From Candidatus Poribacteria bacterium (GTDB lineage Bacteria; Poribacteria; WGA-4E; WGA-3G): a stretch of DNA of 64,000 bases. Each line of letters starts with the position of its first letter. Within the stretch, counting starts at the first letter, position 1. Position numbers and translations under genes: made by a program. The stretch lies in NCBI GenBank assembly GCA_022821725.1, contig JAJEDB010000018.1, positions 30,467 through 94,466 on the forward strand, in the 5' to 3' direction. Under the pieces are notes generated by a model, which ran no database searches, had not been told where the DNA came from, and saw only the letters and a list, made by a program, of their open reading frames with translations. Positions 3,309-46,174 of the stretch are shown here, in pieces.

Positions 3309-3356
3309 AATCCGCGTTAATCCGTATCATCCGTGCAAATCCGCGATTCAGACAAC
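3309..3356 (+). repeat. ATCCGYG...ATTCAGACAA repeat family copy overlapping the hsdS 3' end
   Basis: AATCCGCGTTAATCCGTATCATCCGTGCAAATCCGCGATTCAGACAA. Related copies at 33178-33230 and 61966-62070. Confidence 0.7.
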
Positions 3357-4468
3357 CGCACCCGCCCCGTGAGAAGCTGCTGCATCATCCCCTGTTTGAT
3401 GGCGCGTGTCTTGTCCCTTCGCTGCTCCAACGCCGCAATCTCGGCATCTATATCAGAGAGGACAGAGGCGATGGCGCGTTGTTCTGCTATATCCGTCGGT
3501 ATGGAAAAAGAAAAATTCTTGAAGGTTGGCAGACGTAATGAATCAACGGTTGCCTTTACTGTATTTTGCATAGCATGGCTACCAAATTGCAAAACCATGA
3601 TATAATAGACCAACTTACCATAAACGTCTTTCACAAACCGGTTGATCATATAGACGCGCTGATGACAGTCGAAACGACCATTGATGTAATGAAAAATGCT
3701 CTCAATTCCGCCTTCACCGGGAACAAGAATTGCCTCACCGTCATAGCAATAACTATTAATTCGTTCAACAATTGGCGATCGAACGAAAAAAGAATATTGC
3801 CCATCCTCCACTTTGTCTTCGTTGTTTCGACCGCCCGTTTTGATATGGGCAATCTCCCCCAACCGCTTTGTCTCCCACACCCCACTAAACCCCGGCAGGC
3901 GCGTCTTACCCGTCAGCAGTTGCTGCATAGTGGCTTGCTTAATCGCCTGCTTCTTGGCGATGAGTGCCTCCAACGCATTGATCAACCTATCCACATCTGA
4001 TAATGCTTCGGCAATGGCGCGTTGTTCTTTCTCATCGTCAGGGACGCGAAGTCGAAATTGTCCAACTTGTTCCGAGTTTGCCGCGGTAAATGTGCTACCT
4101 TGTTCTAAAGATTGCCATCGATCTTCTGCATGAACCAAAGCGTGGAATAGAAAACTTGAGTTTCCAAAAGGTTTCAGTCCGCATACCCCACGTCCAATAC
4201 ATGCGTTCTTACTCGCAACGGCGACAGCACCAACAGGCGCGCGGACGGTAAGTATTAGGTCCCCTAAATTACAACGTTTGTTCCCTTTGGTGGTCCATAC
4301 GCGTTCTATTGTCTTTCGGGATTCAATATCGGCATTCCCTTGAATTAACGGCAGTCCTTCACCACGTGAATTGTAAAATATTGAAGATGGCGATTGCCCC
4401 ATTGTAATAATTGCAAGATCAGAAAGCGGTTTTTCAGACCACTTTCCGCTAAAGCATGGATTGACCAT
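3317..4468 (-). CDS. hsdS: Type I restriction-modification specificity subunit HsdS
   Basis: 383 aa with two TRD halves, each followed by a conserved helix (AIAEALSDVDRLINALEALIAKKQAIKQATMQQLLTGKTRL and AIASVLSDIDAEIAALEQRRDKTRAIKQGMMQQLLTGRVRL). The ATG lies 1 nt after the hsdM stop. Confidence 0.9.
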   Translation of the reverse strand: MVNPCFSGKWSEKPLSDLAIITMGQSPSSIFYNSRGEGLPLIQGNADIESRKTIERVWTTKGNKRCNLGDLILTVRAPVGAVAVASKNACIGRGVCGLKPFGNSSFLFHALVHAEDRWQSLEQGSTFTAANSEQVGQFRLRVPDDEKEQRAIAEALSDVDRLINALEALIAKKQAIKQATMQQLLTGKTRLPGFSGVWETKRLGEIAHIKTGGRNNEDKVEDGQYSFFVRSPIVERINSYCYDGEAILVPGEGGIESIFHYINGRFDCHQRVYMINRFVKDVYGKLVYYIMVLQFGSHAMQNTVKATVDSLRLPTFKNFSFSIPTDIAEQRAIASVLSDIDAEIAALEQRRDKTRAIKQGMMQQLLTGRVRLSESRICTDDTD

Positions 4469-4469
4469 A

Positions 4470-6920
4470 TCACGCCACCCTCATTTTCCGCAAATGCGCC
4501 TCAACCTTTTCACTAAACGCCTCCACCTCTTGTGCCAACTCAGGCAACGGATCTGCGTAGCGTTCCTCCAATTCCTTTACACGTTCCGTAAGTGCTTGGG
4601 TCAACCGCTGGACTTCCCCATCAATTGCTGCATGAATACTGGCGAACCATTTATCCGCAACCACAAGTATCTTGATGTCATCCGCAGTGAGCATAGCATA
4701 GCGCGCCAGCACCTGTTCATCGAGCGCGAGTTGCGCATCTTTTACTGTTTTGTCCGCTTTCGATTTTGCATCGAGTAGCGATAGGCAGTGCTCAAGGGCA
4801 TCCCGTTCATCGTCGTTGTCTTGCATCTCGTGGAGGGTTAGCATATCGGGAGTAAGTGTCTTGAGACGTGCCTTCACACTGCTGGCGGTGATACTGCCAC
4901 TATTGTTAGTTGCATCTGTGAGCAATCCTTCATCACCGGTGTGTTCCTCGATGTATTCGTCTAATGCACTCACAGCCGCCGCTTGCCTCGCTTGCAACAT
5001 CTCAATAGCTTCCTGCTCAGCCGCGAAATAGCGTGCAACGATCAACGCAGGCGGAATCAGGTCCATCTTATATTTCTTTTTCTTGATGACAAGGTCAGGT
5101 GTCTCCTGCACCTGTCTGTCCTGAATCACTTCGCGCGGTTTCGCAGCTGCAACCCATCCGTCCGCAGCGATGAGATAAACGTCGTCCTGCATCACCGCGT
5201 CCCAATAGTCCATCAGTTTCTGATAGACATCATAAGCGTCGAGCAGGGGCAGCCCTGTGAACTGCTCTAACAGATCCTCTGAGAGCGTTTGAACGATTTC
5301 CCTCGGAGAAGCGTCAACCGCAATACCTGTCAGGAGCGGTTCGTGTGTCTCGCTCCACGCCTGACAGACAGTATCGACCTGCTGTTGGTAGGCGTTGAAT
5401 TCGGGATGCGTGAGGATAGTCGTTTTTACGTGCTGTGTTTCTACGAGCGGATCGCTGTAACCGGGTCTACCGTTACCTTTGAAGAGTGTGTCGCGGAGTG
5501 TTGGAAAGACCCTCCAATAGTCGTTGAGTGCGTCGATATCGGTATCAGGAATGCCTCCGTTGAGGTGTGCGCCGAGGTCGTGCACGTCTTCGGGTTCACT
5601 TGCATCAATATAACGTGGGATATTCAGGTTATAGGCGTTCGCGAGGTCAGCGATTTCGGAGAGGGACACCATGCGCGAGTAGCGCGGTAATTCTGTCTGT
5701 TCATTGAAAACCGAAACGATTTTATGGATGTCCTGGGCGCGGAGTCGGTTTTTGTTACCATCCTTGAGGAACCCTTTACTTGCATCAATCATAAAGATAC
5801 CAGTGCGATGTGCGGCGTTCTCCTTGTCAATCACGAGGATACAGGCAGGGATCCCAGTGCCGTAGAACAGATTCGCAGGTAGACCGATGACCCCCTTGAT
5901 ATAACCGCGTCGGATAATCTCTTTGCGGATGTCTGCCTCTCTGTTGCCGCGGAATAGCACGCCATGGGGTAAGATGATAGCACCTTTGCCCCTGCTTTTG
6001 AGCGAGGTGATGAAGTGGAGCAAAAAGGCGTAATCGCCATTTTTCGCGGGCGGAACCCCGTATTCAAAACGGTTGTAAACGTCGTTCTCAGGGGTGAGTC
6101 CGTTGGTCCACGCTTTATCCGAGAAAGGTGGATTGGCGACAGCGAAATCGAAGGTTCTGAGCCTATCACTATCTGTGAAATCGGGTGCAGCAAGCGTGTT
6201 CCCGTGTCGTAAATCAGCCGTGGCGTTGTCGTGGAGGATCATGTTCATACAGGCGAGTGCGTATGTTGCATTGTCTTTTTCCTGTCCGTAGATACTCAAC
6301 CCACGCGGTGCGGCATCGGCAGCCCGGAGCAGGAGTGAGCCGGAGCCGCACGCAGGATCGTAAATCGTTTCATCCTGCGAAGTGTCGGGACCGATACCGA
6401 TCACCTGTGCCATGATGCGGGAGACCTCAGCCGGTGTATAGAACTGTCCTTTGCTCTTACCGGATTCAGTGGCGAAGTGCTGCATGAGGTATTCGTAAGC
6501 ATCGCCTAAGAGGTCGTCGCCTTCCACCCGATTGGCTCGGAAATCGAGGCTCTCGAAGATAGCGACGAGTTTTGAGAGCCGATCTTGCATCTCTTTGCCG
6601 CTGCCGAGTTTGCTGTCGTCGTTGAAATCCGCCTGATCGATGATGCCTTTGAGGTCGTTCTCCTCGGCGAGTCTTCCGATGATTTTGTTAAGCTTATCTC
6701 CGATATCTTTATCGCCCTTGAGGGTGACCATATCGGCGAATCCACCGCCTTCGGGGACGAAGATAAGCGAATCTGGATCGCTGGCGGCTTTGTCGGAAAC
6801 GTATTTCATGAAGAGGAGTGTCAGGATGTAATCTTTGTATTGGGAGGCATCCATCCCGCCGCGAAGTTCGTCGCAGCTTTGCCAAAGCGATGCATAGAGT
6901 TGTGATTTCTTTATCGCCAT
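4470..6920 (-). CDS. hsdM: Type I restriction-modification N6-adenine DNA methyltransferase subunit HsdM (long form, ~330-aa C-terminal extension)
   Basis: 816 aa. N-terminus LWQSCDELRGGMDASQYKDYILTLLFMKYVSD. SAM motif YDPACGSGSLL. Catalytic motif FAVANPPFS. Confidence 0.95.
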   Translation of the reverse strand: MAIKKSQLYASLWQSCDELRGGMDASQYKDYILTLLFMKYVSDKAASDPDSLIFVPEGGGFADMVTLKGDKDIGDKLNKIIGRLAEENDLKGIIDQADFNDDSKLGSGKEMQDRLSKLVAIFESLDFRANRVEGDDLLGDAYEYLMQHFATESGKSKGQFYTPAEVSRIMAQVIGIGPDTSQDETIYDPACGSGSLLLRAADAAPRGLSIYGQEKDNATYALACMNMILHDNATADLRHGNTLAAPDFTDSDRLRTFDFAVANPPFSDKAWTNGLTPENDVYNRFEYGVPPAKNGDYAFLLHFITSLKSRGKGAIILPHGVLFRGNREADIRKEIIRRGYIKGVIGLPANLFYGTGIPACILVIDKENAAHRTGIFMIDASKGFLKDGNKNRLRAQDIHKIVSVFNEQTELPRYSRMVSLSEIADLANAYNLNIPRYIDASEPEDVHDLGAHLNGGIPDTDIDALNDYWRVFPTLRDTLFKGNGRPGYSDPLVETQHVKTTILTHPEFNAYQQQVDTVCQAWSETHEPLLTGIAVDASPREIVQTLSEDLLEQFTGLPLLDAYDVYQKLMDYWDAVMQDDVYLIAADGWVAAAKPREVIQDRQVQETPDLVIKKKKYKMDLIPPALIVARYFAAEQEAIEMLQARQAAAVSALDEYIEEHTGDEGLLTDATNNSGSITASSVKARLKTLTPDMLTLHEMQDNDDERDALEHCLSLLDAKSKADKTVKDAQLALDEQVLARYAMLTADDIKILVVADKWFASIHAAIDGEVQRLTQALTERVKELEERYADPLPELAQEVEAFSEKVEAHLRKMRVA

Positions 6921-9629: not shown

Positions 9630-10370
9630 GTGCAAAGCATCTCAACGGAAAATCAAAAAACACGCAAACTCTTTGCGGCACTGAAGTTGCTATCGCCGGG
9701 GACCTGTCTCAGGGAAGGTATGGATTATATCATCCAGAGTAAGACCGGTGGGCTCGTCGTTTTGGGGGATACGCCAGAAATTCTGGATCTGACAGAAGGC
9801 GGCTTCCGAATTAATTGCCCCTATACACCGACAGCCTTATATGAGTTGTCGAAGATGGACGGCGCGATTATCCTTTCTGAAGATATAAAACGCATCGTAC
9901 GTGCGAATGTAACGTTGAGAACCAGCCCGACGATACCCTCTAATGAAACCGGACTCCGCCACCGCTCTGCAGATAAATTCGCAAGACAAACTGAACACAG
10001 TGTCCTCGCCGTATCACGAAGTCGCAATACGCTCACCCTGTATCTCAAAGATCAACGCTATACTTTCCGAGAACGTCCTACACTGCTGGCGGGGGCGAAT
10101 CAAACGATGCTCGTGCTGACGCAGCATCTCAAAGCCCTGCAAAATGCCGTTGCCATTCTGAATTGGGCTGAATTAAGTGGAAACGTCACCTTAACCGAGG
10201 TCGTCTCGGCTATCCAATTGTGTGAGCGCGTTCGCCGCGCTGAGCAGGAATTGGACCGTTACAGGATCGAGTTAGGCACACAGGCGCAATCTCTACAGTC
10301 TGTTATTCCCGAACTCACAACTGAAATTGAGAGTGGACTTCTAATTATAAAAGACTACTATCGTCAGTGA
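9630..10370 (+). CDS. disA: DisA-like diadenylate cyclase (DAC domain plus part of the helical linker; C-terminal HhH region missing)
   Basis: LSPGTCLREGMDYI, LYELSKMDGAIILSEDIKRIVRANV and NETGLRHRSADKFARQT match DisA DAC motifs. I use GTG 9630, which is 9 nt after GGAG; the ORF-track start at 9621 abuts the SD. The protein ends at ..LLIIKDYYRQ, about 95 aa short of canonical DisA. Confidence 0.8.
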   Translation: MQSISTENQKTRKLFAALKLLSPGTCLREGMDYIIQSKTGGLVVLGDTPEILDLTEGGFRINCPYTPTALYELSKMDGAIILSEDIKRIVRANVTLRTSPTIPSNETGLRHRSADKFARQTEHSVLAVSRSRNTLTLYLKDQRYTFRERPTLLAGANQTMLVLTQHLKALQNAVAILNWAELSGNVTLTEVVSAIQLCERVRRAEQELDRYRIELGTQAQSLQSVIPELTTEIESGLLIIKDYYRQ

Positions 10371-25779: not shown

Positions 25780-26865
25780 CTAAATCTCCGGCACTCTCAC
25801 CGCAACCTCTTTCCCCACGGCATGCGATCGGAAAATACCGTCCATAATCACATTCGTGAGGAGGACACCCTCCGGCGGTATCGGCGAGGGTGCGTCCGCT
25901 TTGACGGCTTCACGGAAGGCTATCATTTGTGCTGCCCAGTTATCTTCCTCTGGGAATCCTGAGAACCGGATCGTCGTCATGCCTTCCGGCGGATTCGGTT
26001 CTCCTGTTAATCCCTCTGATTCCACAAACTTCTTGAGATCCCCCGCATACGCATCGGCGTAGATAACCGGTCCACTCAACGAGAACCCCGCCTTCGTCCC
26101 AAGATGGAAGTTGCCACCGAGTGAATCCTGATGCACTGCCCAAGAGATTTTGAACACCATCACACCGCCGTTTTCAAACCGCACCCACGCCGCACCGAAC
26201 TCTTCAACGTCCATGATACCCCGGAACCTCGGATCTTGCTGTGAGATATAATCCTCAGTAATAGCGGAAACCCGCACAGGTTTCGGATACCCCATCGCAT
26301 ACAGTGAAGCGTGCATGTTATAGACACCGATATCGACGGTCGCACCCGCACCCGCGGTTTTTTTGTAGATGAACGTATGTCCAGGGTTCCCGCGTCGCCT
26401 GCACCCCGCAGATTCGGAATAGTAGATGTCCCCGAATAATCCCGCATCGAACGCCTTTCTGAGGAATTGGAGTCTCGGACTAAACGTCGGATTGAGACCG
26501 ATCTGTAATATCTTGCCTGATGCCTTTGCTGCGCGGGTCATCGCCGTCGCATCGGGAAGCGTCGCTGCCATCGGTTTTTCACAGAGGACGTGTTTCCCGG
26601 CGTTCAGTGCCGCGACTGTCGGTCGTCGGTGCCCCTGATTGTAAGTGCAGACGCTCACCGCGTCGAGGTCGTCCATTTCGAGCATCTTGTTGTAACTTGA
26701 AAACGCGTTCTTTTTCGGGACACCCCACTCTTCAGCAGCTTGGTTCGCCTTACTTTTGATAATGTCGCACACCGCGACGATTTCAAAACCACCGACTTTC
26801 TCATAAGTGCTCTGGTGGGCACGTGAAATGCCACCTGTGCCAATAATACCGACTCGGACCGTCAT
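25780..26865 (-). CDS. Gfo/Idh/MocA family oxidoreductase (paralog 1)
   Basis: MTVRVGIIGTGGISRAH (Rossmann fold), EKPMA. ATG 26865 with GGAG upstream gives 361 aa, the same length as the neighbouring paralog. Confidence 0.9.
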   Translation of the reverse strand: MTVRVGIIGTGGISRAHQSTYEKVGGFEIVAVCDIIKSKANQAAEEWGVPKKNAFSSYNKMLEMDDLDAVSVCTYNQGHRRPTVAALNAGKHVLCEKPMAATLPDATAMTRAAKASGKILQIGLNPTFSPRLQFLRKAFDAGLFGDIYYSESAGCRRRGNPGHTFIYKKTAGAGATVDIGVYNMHASLYAMGYPKPVRVSAITEDYISQQDPRFRGIMDVEEFGAAWVRFENGGVMVFKISWAVHQDSLGGNFHLGTKAGFSLSGPVIYADAYAGDLKKFVESEGLTGEPNPPEGMTTIRFSGFPEEDNWAAQMIAFREAVKADAPSPIPPEGVLLTNVIMDGIFRSHAVGKEVAVRVPEI

Positions 26866-26902
26866 AGTGTTCTCTCCTTCTAACAAATTCACCGAATTAA
26901 AC

Positions 26903-27988
26903 TTAAAGCGCCGGCACGCGCACCGCGACCTCTTTCCCCGATTCCTGTGATCGGAAGATACCGTCCATAATTACGTTTGTAAGGAGGACACCCTCCGGCG
27001 GTATCGGCGACGGGGCATCCGCTAAGACGGCTTCTCGGAACGCGGTTATCTGTGCCTCCCAGACATCGACCTCTGGAAATCCTGAGAATTGGATCGTCGT
27101 CATCCCTTCTGGTGGGTTCGGTGCTGCCGTCAATCCTTCCGATGCCACCAGTTTCTTGAGATCATCTGTATACGCATCGGCATAGACAGCCGGTCCATCC
27201 AACGAGATACCCATTTCTTTACCGAGACAGAAGCTCGGACCGAGCGAATCCTGATGAATCGCCCAAGAGATTTTGAACACCATCACGCTCCCATCTTCAA
27301 ACCTGATCCATGCCACACCGAACTCTTCGACATCCATGATACCCCGGAATTGCGGATCCTGCTGTGAGATGTAATCCTCGGTAATGGCGGAAACTCTCAC
27401 CGGTTTCGGGTACCCCATCGCATACAGTGAATTGTGCATGTTATAGACACCGATGTCTACAATCGCACCCGCCCCTGCTGTCTTTTTATAGATGAACGTG
27501 CGTCCCGGATTCCCGCGGCGTCTGCCCCCCGAGGACTCGGAATAGTAGATATCCCCGAGCAATCCTTCATCGATGACCTTCTTAGCGAATTGGAGTCTCG
27601 GATTGAATGTGCTATGGAGACCGATCTGCAAAATTTTGCCCGACGCTTTCGCTGCACGGGTCATCGCGGTCGCATCAGGAAGGTTTGCCGCCATCGGTTT
27701 TTCACAGAAAACGTGTTTGCCAGCGTTCAGTGCCGCAACCGTTGGACGGCGATGTCCTTGGTTATAGGTACAAACACTCACGGTATCGATCTCATCCATT
27801 TCGAGCATCTTATTGTAGCTGGAGAAGACGTGTTTTCTGGGAACACCCCACTGATCGGCTTTTTCGTTCGCTTTACTTTTGATGATGTCGCACACCGCGA
27901 CGATCTCAAAACCGCCCACTCTCTCGTAGGCTCTCTGATGTGCCCGTGAAATACCGCCTGTGCCAACAATACCGACTCGGATAGTCAT
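26903..27988 (-). CDS. Gfo/Idh/MocA family oxidoreductase (paralog 2)
   Basis: MTIRVGIVGTGGISRAH. Colinear with and highly similar to 25780..26865 along its whole length. Confidence 0.9.
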   Translation of the reverse strand: MTIRVGIVGTGGISRAHQRAYERVGGFEIVAVCDIIKSKANEKADQWGVPRKHVFSSYNKMLEMDEIDTVSVCTYNQGHRRPTVAALNAGKHVFCEKPMAANLPDATAMTRAAKASGKILQIGLHSTFNPRLQFAKKVIDEGLLGDIYYSESSGGRRRGNPGRTFIYKKTAGAGAIVDIGVYNMHNSLYAMGYPKPVRVSAITEDYISQQDPQFRGIMDVEEFGVAWIRFEDGSVMVFKISWAIHQDSLGPSFCLGKEMGISLDGPAVYADAYTDDLKKLVASEGLTAAPNPPEGMTTIQFSGFPEVDVWEAQITAFREAVLADAPSPIPPEGVLLTNVIMDGIFRSQESGKEVAVRVPAL

Positions 27989-43641: not shown

Positions 43642-44388
43642 CTAATACGTGGCTCTTCCGCCGCTGACATCGTAACACTGACCCGTTACGAAACTCGCTT
43701 CATCCGAAGCCAAGAAATTCACCACAGCCGCGACTTCCTCCGGTTTCCCGACACGCCCCAATGGAATTTTACTCACCATATAGTCGACAGTCGATTGTGC
43801 CATGCCGTCCAATATCGGTGTTTGGATCACCGCGGGCGACACGGCGTTCACGCGAATGTTATAGTTTGTTACCTCTTTTGCGAGTGCCTTTGTCAAGCAG
43901 ATCACACCCGCCTTGGATACCGAATACGGGATGAGCGTTGGATTGCCCTCCTTGCCAGCAATCGAGGCGATGTTCACAATCCTACCGTAATCCTGTGCAA
44001 TCATTGGACCAATCACTGCTTTACAGCAGAGAAAAACGCCTGTCAGGTTTACACCCATCACGGCATCCCAATCCGCTACTTCTAAATCCGTTAAGGGTAG
44101 GGTGCGTCCCGCAATACCGGCGTTGTTGACGAGTATGTCAACGCGACCGAAGGTGGAGATCACTTTTTCAACTGCAGCATTGACATCAGTAGATTGCGAA
44201 ACATCTGCTTGAACGGGTAATGTTTGGCATCCGGTAGCCGCAATTTCCTGTGCTACCGCTGCAGCTGCTCCCATGTTTAAATCCATGATGCCGACAGTTG
44301 CGCCAGCGTTTGCGAGTCTAATCGCAATCGCTTTGCCGATACCTTGCCCTGCGCCTGTTACAATCGCAATTTTATCCGTTAGATTCAT
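43642..44388 (-). CDS. SDR-family oxidoreductase (FabG-like)
   Basis: IAIVTGAGQGIGKAIA (TGxxxGxG), NNAG, and YSVSKAG (YxxxK). Confidence 0.9.
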   Translation of the reverse strand: MNLTDKIAIVTGAGQGIGKAIAIRLANAGATVGIMDLNMGAAAAVAQEIAATGCQTLPVQADVSQSTDVNAAVEKVISTFGRVDILVNNAGIAGRTLPLTDLEVADWDAVMGVNLTGVFLCCKAVIGPMIAQDYGRIVNIASIAGKEGNPTLIPYSVSKAGVICLTKALAKEVTNYNIRVNAVSPAVIQTPILDGMAQSTVDYMVSKIPLGRVGKPEEVAAVVNFLASDEASFVTGQCYDVSGGRATY

Positions 44389-44941
44389 TAAAATTTCTCC
44401 CTTCCAGAAAATTATCTAATTCAATTCCGAACGCATCTGCTATCTTGTTGACGTAACAGAAGAAACCGACGACCTCCACAATAGCGAAGAGTGCCTCGTC
44501 CGTGAGTCCATGATTGCGGAGATGTTCCAAGTCCGACGGTGTAAGCGTAGGTGCCGCTTTTGTCACCTTAACGGCGAATTCGAGGATCGCTTTTGTGGTT
44601 TCGTCAATGTCAGCCGTCTGAAAATCCGTTACAATCTGTGAAATCTGTTCATCTGTGAATTGTTCCCGCAATTCATCGGCGTGTGCTATTATTCAGTAGT
44701 GGCATTCATTCACTTTTGAAACGACGGTAGCGATCATTTCCCGTTGCATCCGACTCAACGGTGAGTCTGGGTCGTGCATCACGATTTTGTAGAGTTCCAC
44801 GAAAGCACGCATACTTTTCGGACGCACACTAAAAAGCTTGACGATATTGTAAAGTTGCCCCGCCCGTGCAATCGCCGCGTCATATTCCGCTTTCACGATG
44901 CCGGTGGCATCCGCCTCATCCACGGTTTGAATCCATGCCAT
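44372..44941 (-). CDS. AhpD/carboxymuconolactone-decarboxylase-family peroxidase-related protein, candidate selenoprotein (in-frame TGA at 44693-44695)
   Basis: ORF-track entries 44693..44941 and 44372..44671 are in the same frame (offset 270 nt). Together they give 189 codons. The TGA falls in ..SKVNECHY[TGA]IIAHADEL.., where the family has C-x-x-C followed by H. A hairpin lies 17 nt downstream. Confidence 0.6.
44656..44675 (-). promoter_or_regulatory. Candidate bacterial SECIS hairpin
   Basis: In the mRNA, UGAAUUG-CGGGAA-CAAUUCA forms a 7-bp stem with a G-rich apical loop. The stem starts 17 nt after the UGA and the loop 24 nt after it. Confidence 0.4.
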
Positions 44942-44944
44942 ATT

Positions 44945-46174
44945 TTATTCTCCAATCACGACACCATATTCACCAACAACCGCACCTTTGTGTCCGGTTT
45001 GGTAGTGTAGGTGTCTTTCACCGACAATCGGTTGTGTGCTTTGCACTTCGACAGTGCCGCGCACTTTCCCCATTGCCTCTTCATCCATATCTACACAGCA
45101 GAGCGGCTTAATTTGCCGATGCACTTGCCGACGAATATGTCCCTCCCGATTGCGGACGATGACATTCACAAAGGCATCTGCTTCCCCGACGTTAAGGAAT
45201 CGGAACCAGTCCCAGGCACCCCCCGCAATTTCGGGGAAAAAGAGCCGAATCCCAATCTGCCCGCCCTCCACGGATGCCCCGGGTAGATCGATAATGGCTG
45301 TCCCACTTTGCATGTGTCGTTCCGCCACAACCGGCTGGTTGCTGCGCACTTCTACGGAGGATTTCACTTTAATGTCGTCCATGGGTGGCGTCCAACACTC
45401 AAAAGGTCTCAACCGATCGCGTTTTTTTGTCCATGTCGATTGCGCGTTGTCGTCTTTCCGTGCGATCATCGTGACTTCTGCATCTTCTCTTCCGACGTTG
45501 ACGATGACGACCCAGTCTTCCCATGCGGGTCCGACCTCCGGGAAAAAGAGCGTGCGCGGCGCATCCGAGATTACCTGTCCAAATTGCCCGACACTCGTCT
45601 TACCGCCTTGATAGTGGAGATGGCGTTCTCCGACAATCGGTTGTGAACTTTGCATCTCAACGGTGCCTGTGACGTTACCCATCACACCTTCATTGAGATC
45701 CCAACAGCAGAGCGGTTTGATAACGTGATGGCGTTGCCGTAACACATCCCCGTTCCTGTTGCGGACGGTGATGTTGACGTGCGCGTCTGCCTCACCGACG
45801 TTCAGAACCCGAAACCAGTCGTGAGCACCAGAGACCAGTTCTGGGAAGAAGAGCCGCTGTCCAACTGTTCCATATTCTGGAGCCGCGCCGACAAAATCCA
45901 ACACATTCGTGTCCTTGTGCATGTGTCGTTCTGCCACAATCGGTTGGTCCGCAGTGAACTGCATTGAAGAGTTCGTTTTAATCTCATCAACGGCGGGGAT
46001 CCAAGACTCAAAGGAACTTATGGTTTTCTCCGCAGACCAAGTCGGTTGTCCGTTGTCAGCATGTCTCGCGATTCCGGTCACACGGGTGTCTTCGGTTCCC
46101 ACATTTGTGACTTGAACCCAGTCTTGCCACTCGGGGCCCACTTCTGGAAAATAAAGGGTTGTCGCGCCTGCCAT
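44945..46174 (-). CDS. Four-repeat (A-B-A-B) protein of unknown function
   Basis: 409 aa made of four ~100-aa modules, each containing LFFPE..G..DW....NVG..DA.V and QP(I/V)V(A/G)ERH(M/L)H. The B modules carry KPLCC(W/V)D. Its stop is 3 nt before the start of the AhpD-like gene. Confidence 0.7.
   Translation of the reverse strand: MAGATTLYFPEVGPEWQDWVQVTNVGTEDTRVTGIARHADNGQPTWSAEKTISSFESWIPAVDEIKTNSSMQFTADQPIVAERHMHKDTNVLDFVGAAPEYGTVGQRLFFPELVSGAHDWFRVLNVGEADAHVNITVRNRNGDVLRQRHHVIKPLCCWDLNEGVMGNVTGTVEMQSSQPIVGERHLHYQGGKTSVGQFGQVISDAPRTLFFPEVGPAWEDWVVIVNVGREDAEVTMIARKDDNAQSTWTKKRDRLRPFECWTPPMDDIKVKSSVEVRSNQPVVAERHMQSGTAIIDLPGASVEGGQIGIRLFFPEIAGGAWDWFRFLNVGEADAFVNVIVRNREGHIRRQVHRQIKPLCCVDMDEEAMGKVRGTVEVQSTQPIVGERHLHYQTGHKGAVVGEYGVVIGE

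Follow-up and report, generated by a model that had tools for sequence, protein, structure and literature searches.

AhpD-like proteins with a CxxU redox motif, in which selenocysteine (Sec, U) takes the place of the second Cys, are among the most abundant selenoproteins of marine prokaryotes. The first report of them came from the Sargasso Sea metagenome (Zhang, Fomenko & Gladyshev 2005). The Global Ocean Sampling (GOS) selenoproteome lists 'AhpD-like 1, COG2128, CxxU', counting 299 Sec and 902 Cys forms, and a 2026 review (PMC13188914) lists an 'AhpD-like protein, TIGR01926, CxxU' whose origin it traces to the 2005 Sargasso Sea study. An earlier note on the DNA considered here had spoken of a recognised selenoprotein family, and the GOS list and the review confirm that description. 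The subject of the present analysis is a 64-kb stretch of the genome of a sponge-associated Candidatus Poribacteria bacterium, called the window throughout in the sense of the whole stretch, and within it a gene at 44372..44941 on the minus strand that carries an in-frame UGA. Judged from sequence, this is very probably a single functional AhpD-like gene in which the UGA is decoded as Sec. The gene has in common with the described family the TIGR01926 model, the CxxU motif and a marine origin, and nothing fundamental differs between them; by sequence-based criteria it is a member of the catalogued AhpD-like CxxU selenoprotein family. In the literature searched there was no description of the gene's distribution across the sponge-associated Poribacteria, of the operon in which it lies or of its occurrence in public collections as split fragments only.

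In the window the gene is represented by two open reading frames (ORFs) on the minus strand, 44693..44941 (82 amino acids) and 44372..44671 (99 amino acids), which lie in a common frame with a gap of 21 nucleotides (nt) between them. Reading through both gives 189 codons with a single internal stop, in the context ...SKVNECHY-TGA-IIAHADELRE... The earlier note had reported the paired ORFs and the 189-codon protein with TGA as its sole internal stop, and sequence inspection and translation reproduced both. It had also expected annotation pipelines to return two fragments or a pseudogene. Two fragments, of 82 and ~100-106 amino acids, are what gene callers give in the poribacterial records examined, and public collections contain the poribacterial orthologues only in pieces, as C-terminal fragments of 104-107 amino acids (P0001-P0007) and separate 82-amino-acid calls. 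The gene and the elements within or next to it on which the interpretation depends are as follows.

44372..44941, minus strand: predicted AhpD-like (TIGR01926, CMD superfamily) selenoprotein gene, complete, 189 codons, with ATG at 44941 and final TAA at 44372..44374
44949..44953, minus strand: putative Shine-Dalgarno-like GGAGA read from the sequence, 7 nt 5' of the ATG and within the end of the upstream gene
44738..44740, minus strand: codon of Glu68, the proton-relay Glu (E-x11-C), read from the sequence
44702..44704, minus strand: codon of Cys80, the first (resolving) Cys of C-x-x-U, read from the sequence
44693..44695, minus strand: in-frame UGA, presumed Sec83, at the second site of the C80-H-Y-U83 redox motif, that of the nucleophile
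44681..44683, minus strand: codon of His87 (U-x3-H), located 3' of the UGA and ahead of the first possible restart of the 3' ORF
44656..44675, minus strand: SECIS-type (selenocysteine insertion sequence) hairpin within the coding sequence, with 5' arm UGAAUUG at 44669..44675, loop CGGGAA at 44663..44668 and 3' arm CAAUUCA at 44656..44662

Profile scores, computed with U replaced by C, assign the product to its family. The 'peroxidase-related' NCBIfam model TIGR01926 scores 142.4 bits (cutoff 81.8) over profile positions 1-173 of 178, the Pfam CMD model PF02627 scores 51.6 bits (cutoff 23) and TIGR00778 scores 41.2 bits (cutoff 27.8). The classical AhpD model TIGR00777 gives only 18 bits and does not reach its cutoff of 191.95; by these profiles the product is a relative of AhpD and not AhpD proper. 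Its best homologues of solved structure (2pfx, 3c1l, 2prr, 2oyo and 6k40) align over about 150 residues with E values of 2.9e-28 to 3e-19.

Within the active-site motif E-x11-C-x-Y-C-x3-H, the TGA stands exactly at the second Cys. In the solved structures the corresponding column is occupied by the second Cys in N-x-C-x-Y-C-[LIV]-x-A-H, a motif that in 2pfx reads NKCFYCLVAHG. For 2pfx, 3c1l and 2prr, with Cys in the UGA column, the alignments have E values of 3e-28 to 7e-23, and the Cys-form genes L059 (alphaproteobacterial), L061 and L062 (both metagenomic) carry TGC there. Taken together, the homologue alignment puts the UGA where the earlier note had placed it, at the second Cys of CxxC. 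The proton relay described for AhpD-like proteins consists of Glu-x11-Cys-x-(His/Tyr)-Cys-x3-His on a two-helix hairpin, with the residues E118, C130, H132, C133 and H137 in M. tuberculosis AhpD and E36, C48, Y50, C51 and H55 in P. aeruginosa PA0269 (PMC3141380). The spacing of E68, C80, Y82, U83 and H87 in the poribacterial protein is identical to that of both, and Tyr occupies the middle relay position in PA0269 and the poribacterial protein alike. At the second Cys position, however, the two described proteins have Cys where the poribacterial protein would have Sec. Likewise, 2pfx, 3c1l (Mlr4105), 2prr, 2oyo and the AhpD structure 6k40 have the motif in common with the poribacterial protein, but all are Cys forms. 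By homology to 2pfx and the others, the poribacterial protein may be expected to adopt the same two-helix-hairpin geometry. In M. tuberculosis AhpD the attacking nucleophile is the second Cys (Cys133), and as a rule Sec takes the place of a catalytic Cys; Sec at the nucleophile position of the poribacterial protein would fit that rule.

At the codon itself, the agreement among homologues goes far beyond chance. A homologue scan with one genome per species yielded 54 loci, and the codon check covered 57 sequences. About 47 of the loci come from metagenome-assembled genomes (MAGs), single-cell genomes and complete chromosomes of Candidatus Poribacteria, with 75-98% amino acid identity; four distant loci, from Planctomycetota, Terriglobia and an unclassified MAG, have 39-49%. 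The relay residues E(-15), C(-3), Y(-1), U and H(+4) are invariant in 54/54 Sec-form sequences. All 57 homologous sequences have TGA at the same codon and none has a Cys codon there, and the Sec codon is retained in all of the ~47 poribacterial species sampled without reversion to Cys. These sequences derive from independent assemblies, which include MAGs from short reads, complete chromosomes from long reads and single-cell genomes. OY764016.1, OZ242029.1 and OX639992.1 are examples of complete poribacterial chromosomes with the gene; to the first of these the window is 96.5% identical at the nucleotide level across 7.6 kb.

Sec insertion in bacteria also calls for a hairpin in the message. 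The model for the bacterial element (bSECIS) specifies an apical loop of 3-9 nt, an upper stem of 4-16 bp, a UGA-to-loop distance of 16-37 nt and a minimum free energy (MFE) of -7.5 kcal/mol or lower, with G at loop position 1, 2 or both, after which G or U is usual (PMC13188914). The 7-bp hairpin that the earlier note had pointed out, 17 nt past the UGA with its loop at 24 nt (44669..44692), is present as described, and the 24-nt distance is the same in all aligned sequences. As in the bSECIS consensus (Zhang & Gladyshev), the poribacterial hairpin lies in the coding sequence directly 3' of the UGA. Its loop has 6 nt, its 7-bp stem includes a 6-bp conserved core, its spacing of 24 nt falls inside the published range, and an invariant G at loop position 2 is followed by G or U. 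The apical loop reads C-G-[G/U]-G-N-N in 50/50 distinct sequences, with positions 1, 2 and 4 (C, G, G) invariant; a difference from the bSECIS consensus is that C and A, at N1 and N2 of the poribacterial loop, are unable to pair.

Comparative evidence for the stem comes from an alignment of 37 distinct sequences in codon register, while the survey of loops and energies took in 50 distinct sequences. In this alignment, 97.3% of the cells of the 7-bp stem are paired and compensatory changes occur at 4/7 pairs, a degree of pairing and covariation that 0/500 column shuffles reached, although these shuffles ignore the relatedness of the sequences. Sliding the 3' arm by 1-3 columns lowers the pairing to at most 39%. 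RNAalifold independently predicts the 6-bp stem core and supports no lower stem or internal loop. The Poribacteria have the stem GAGUUG/CAACUC (or GAAUUG/CAAUUC), encoding E-L...Q-L/F, and the Planctomycetota and unclassified homologues have GACCUC/GAGGUC, encoding D-L...E-V. At the pair formed by positions 36 and 49, the counts are 31 G-C, 11 A-U, 5 G-U and 3 C-G, and the non-pairing A-C is absent. Within the Poribacteria, this pair couples a synonymous Glu site (GAA/GAG) to the opening base of a Phe/Leu codon. In the Sec-form register, no hairpin is present in L059, L061 and L062, the Cys-form genes. The covariation lends indirect support to selection on the hairpin structure.

Several results nevertheless weigh against decoding of the UGA as Sec. 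Folded as a single sequence of 71 nt, the window copy of the hairpin does not stand out from chance (MFE -6.9 kcal/mol, z = +0.48), and 133/200 shuffled sequences fold at least as stably; the stretch from the UGA to +45 nt has an MFE of -6.2 kcal/mol, which lies above the -7.5 kcal/mol threshold. The compensatory changes in the stem derive mostly from the split between the Poribacteria and three distant sequences and so represent few independent events. The 64-kb window and ~1 Mb of poribacterial flanks offered no credible candidate for another gene interrupted by TGA, nor did they contain a recognisable selA, selB, selC or selD. In a search of a collection of 5.8 billion proteins with a SelA profile, built from E. 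coli SelA (a 100% match to PDB 8uzw) and Aquifex SelA, the best 120 of 8000 matches were all from Enterobacteria. Finally, where SelA counts have been published for Poribacteria, the COG1921 counts of 2-4 probably take in SelA-like paralogues.

On the energy of the hairpin, -7.5 kcal/mol or lower is reached by 38/50 distinct orthologues (median -9.0), and both the folded region and the parameters used may differ from those of bSECISearch. As a SECIS element, the hairpin agrees with three of the four published criteria and is supported by covariation, and the window copy falls short in folding energy; the significance of the hairpin derives from the comparative data only. With regard to the machinery, ARAGORN found no tRNA-Sec in the window or the 57 loci, Rfam at gathering thresholds found none in the window, and motif expressions for SelA, SelB and SelD, a weak test, had no match when the window and all loci were translated in six frames. 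Published inventories of poribacterial genomes bear on the same point. Table S4 of Slaby et al. 2017 gives SelA/SelB/SelD counts, by clusters of orthologous groups (COGs), of 2/1/1 for bin70, 4/1/2 for bin44 and 2/1/1 for WGA-3G; bin70 and bin44 are classed there as Candidatus Poribacteria, and WGA-3G is a Candidatus Poribacteria single-cell genome. In addition, a 2026 survey places the Poribacteria among the phyla with Sec-type group 4 [NiFeSe] hydrogenases.

Among the other explanations, the one that fares best accepts the SECIS/SelB route and differs in the amino acid delivered. In this case Cys would be inserted at the UGA, either by an allo-tRNA of the tRNA-ReC (selC*) type or through mis-charging with Cys or Ser at low selenium. 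Insertion of Sec and insertion of Cys are indistinguishable from sequence, which is the argument in its favor. However, the same protein could be had without the cost of recoding by a one-base change of TGA into TGC or TGT, and this change is seen in 0/57 sequences. Moreover, the COGs of SelA and SelD, which are needed for Sec and not for Cys, are reported in the poribacterial genomes just mentioned. Cys insertion is regarded as very improbable.

Slightly less probable again is a pseudogene or a truly split gene, in which the UGA would terminate translation and either the N-terminal 82-amino-acid piece alone would be produced or the two pieces would be produced separately. The fragments in the public collections and the weak hairpin of the window copy are what such a gene would lead one to expect. 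The behavior of the sequence past the UGA argues otherwise. For the window against poribacterial orthologues, dN/dS is 0.06-0.15 on the 3' side of the UGA and 0.01-0.11 on the 5' side, the downstream range being that of orthologues without indels (L043 and L046, which have an internal indel, were left out); by this measure, purifying selection on the sequence past the UGA is strong. The TIGR01926 and PDB alignments continue through the UGA to about residue 173. Seven codons separate the UGA from the first possible restart, and they must be translated because the invariant catalytic His87 lies among them. The restart codon chosen by gene callers is inconsistent among the orthologues, being TTG, GTG or ATG at different positions, and no Shine-Dalgarno motif precedes the candidate restart codon in the window sequence. 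A stop within CxxC-x3-H would inactivate both halves, yet it has been retained in ~50 species. Where the gene appears to have been lost, in L058 and L060, the losses take another form, that of large deletions.

It is also conceivable, if only barely, that UGA is a sense codon genome-wide (code 4 or 25, with Trp or Gly) and that the gene is an ordinary one without Sec. TGA is indeed the rarest stop in the window, whose genome has 49% GC, and Joint Genome Institute (JGI) pipelines place Trp at this codon in two homologues. Of the 49 long ORFs of the window, however, 29 end at TAA, 15 at TAG and 5 at TGA, and a reassigned code would fragment many genes where a single credible case occurs in 64 kb; because five long ORFs end at TGA and only one gene is interrupted by it, genome-wide reassignment is unlikely on these counts. 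Trp or Gly at the nucleophile position of CxxC would kill the activity, and the covarying hairpin would be left unexplained. As for the sequencing or assembly error that the earlier note had held open, with TGA standing for TGC or TGT, it has only the prior in its favor that single-base errors exist and is excluded because the TGA is identical in 57 independent sequences.

Decoding as Sec therefore remains the preferred reading, and a mechanism can be proposed for it. What the sequences show is conservation of the UGA, retention of the downstream region as protein and covariation in the hairpin. In this proposal, UGA codon 83 would be read as Sec, with SelB carrying Sec-tRNA(Sec) recruited by the mRNA hairpin whose loop lies 24 nt past the UGA. 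By analogy with the family, Glu68, Cys80, Tyr82, Sec83 and His87 would form the relay, with Sec as the attacking nucleophile in the manner of Cys133 and Cys80 as the resolving residue. The enzyme would then cycle between a selenol/thiol and a selenenylsulfide form, and the cycle would reduce either a peroxiredoxin-type partner or hydroperoxides directly.

The genomic setting of the gene may offer clues to its partners. Two genes flank it closely on the same strand.

44945..46174, minus strand: upstream partner, 409 amino acids, with four predicted beta-sandwich repeats resembling the Anabaena sensory-rhodopsin transducer (ASRT) and TM1070; its stop lies 3 nt before the selenoprotein ATG
43642..44388, minus strand: downstream partner, a classical short-chain dehydrogenase/reductase (SDR) oxidoreductase of 248 amino acids; its ATG lies within the selenoprotein 3' end, an overlap of 17 nt

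The tight, Poribacteria-specific operon of the 409-amino-acid gene, the selenoprotein gene and the SDR gene (PF13561 228 bits, PF00106 204 bits) is found in about 45 of 47 poribacterial loci, with a pterin-4a-carbinolamine dehydratase gene transcribed divergently beside it. From this arrangement, the selenoprotein in Poribacteria appears to be co-transcribed, and is probably translationally coupled, with the beta-sandwich protein and the SDR. The 409-amino-acid protein has no match in Pfam or NCBIfam. Its high-confidence AlphaFold2 model (pLDDT 93.1, pTM 0.91) consists of four tandem beta-sandwich repeats, for which Foldseek returns TM1070 (1nc7) and the Anabaena sensory-rhodopsin transducer (2ii8) with a probability of 1.00, and the family comprises ~150 clusters that are essentially poribacterial. 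Each repeat closes with an invariant E-R-H-x-H(-Y) motif. A role for this protein as a thiol redox partner, considered on account of its CC pairs, was rejected, given that Cys is not conserved in the family and the fold is an ASRT-like beta-sandwich; the idea is further weakened by distant family members that are unlinked to an AhpD-like gene. In pelagic or free-living Poribacteria-like contigs (L065, 4001..6705), the family occurs as two tandem paralogues of 419 and 411 amino acids. Their neighbors are FGE-sulfatase and TauE genes, rpsF-ssb-rpsR-rplI lies downstream of them, and an AhpD-like gene is absent there.

No ahpC or peroxiredoxin gene adjoins the selenoprotein gene in Poribacteria. 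Where the gene lies outside the operon (L023, L029 and L054-L057), its neighbors encode TPR/FRG proteins, alanyl-tRNA synthetase, SpoIIE, peptidases and DUF3885, with no redox partner among them. A rather doubtful possibility is that the Sec-containing AhpD-like enzyme of sponge-associated Poribacteria works without a peroxiredoxin, in a lineage-specific module of three genes (the ASRT/TM1070-like protein, the selenoprotein and the SDR). Such a module, together with the divergent pterin-4a-carbinolamine dehydratase, might act on a small molecule or on a substrate derived from the host, with the SDR as source or consumer of reducing equivalents. If true, the three genes would constitute a new selenoenzyme pathway tied to sponge symbiosis.

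The location of the gene has not been constant within the phylum. In two poribacterial species (L023 and L029, 10001..10564), the Sec gene lies between TPR/FRG-domain genes and alanyl-tRNA synthetase; because these locations differ from the usual one, the gene must have moved, or the operon broken up, at least once. In two other genomes, the selenoprotein gene is cut to in-frame remnants of 64 codons (L058, 10001..10192, in the single-cell genome WGA-3G) and 32 codons (L060, ~10180..10279, in the MAG p16x33bins.23). The deletion breakpoints differ between the two, and the flanking 409-amino-acid and SDR genes are intact. They look like two independent losses by deletion, with an amplification artefact possible for L058 as a single-cell genome. 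Outright deletions are the only losses seen, and conversion from Sec to Cys occurs in no poribacterium.

Two JGI metagenome contigs, L063 (2..460) and L064 (325..777), have TGA at the Sec/Cys column in their DNA. The proteins derived from them, P0011 and P0012, are stored with Trp at this position ('CSYW'), and the pipeline of origin evidently applied to these contigs a code that reads TGA as Trp. By their sequences, L063 and L064 are further unrecognised AhpD-like selenoprotein genes. In their subfamily the hairpin is a different one with a GG loop, located ~12 nt past the UGA. A second Trp/TGA occurs upstream in P0011, probably outside the real gene. Distant homologues adjoin AhpC/Redoxin, thioredoxin-like or OsmC genes, for example AhpC-TSA/Redoxin in the case of L062 (a Cys form) and OsmC in the case of L063, and such neighbors agree with a role in peroxide defence for the wider family.

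Two further features of the window are unconnected with the selenoprotein gene. At 3317..6920 on the minus strand, ORFs of 383 and 816 amino acids lie side by side, the larger with the N-terminus MAIKKSQLYASLWQSCDELRGG...; it may be an HsdM-like methylase of a type I restriction-modification system, with a putative HsdS-like gene beside it. At 25780..26892 and 26903..27988, also on the minus strand, are tandem paralogous ORFs of ~365 amino acids with near-identical N-termini (M..TIRVGI[IV]GTGGISRAHQ...), a pair (25780..27988) that suggests a recent tandem duplication of a Rossmann-type oxidoreductase.

For selenoproteins and SECIS elements in general, the outcome leaves present knowledge unchanged and is what a selenoprotein specialist would expect. 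Its main value lies in correcting annotation and in documenting the use of Sec in Poribacteria. With the split fragments merged, a dominant sponge-symbiont phylum gains a corrected proteome, and the gene adds direct sequence evidence for the use of selenocysteine by sponge-associated Poribacteria. That Sec has been retained without reversion to Cys suggests that the sponge environment selects strongly for the selenol form of an antioxidant-type enzyme.

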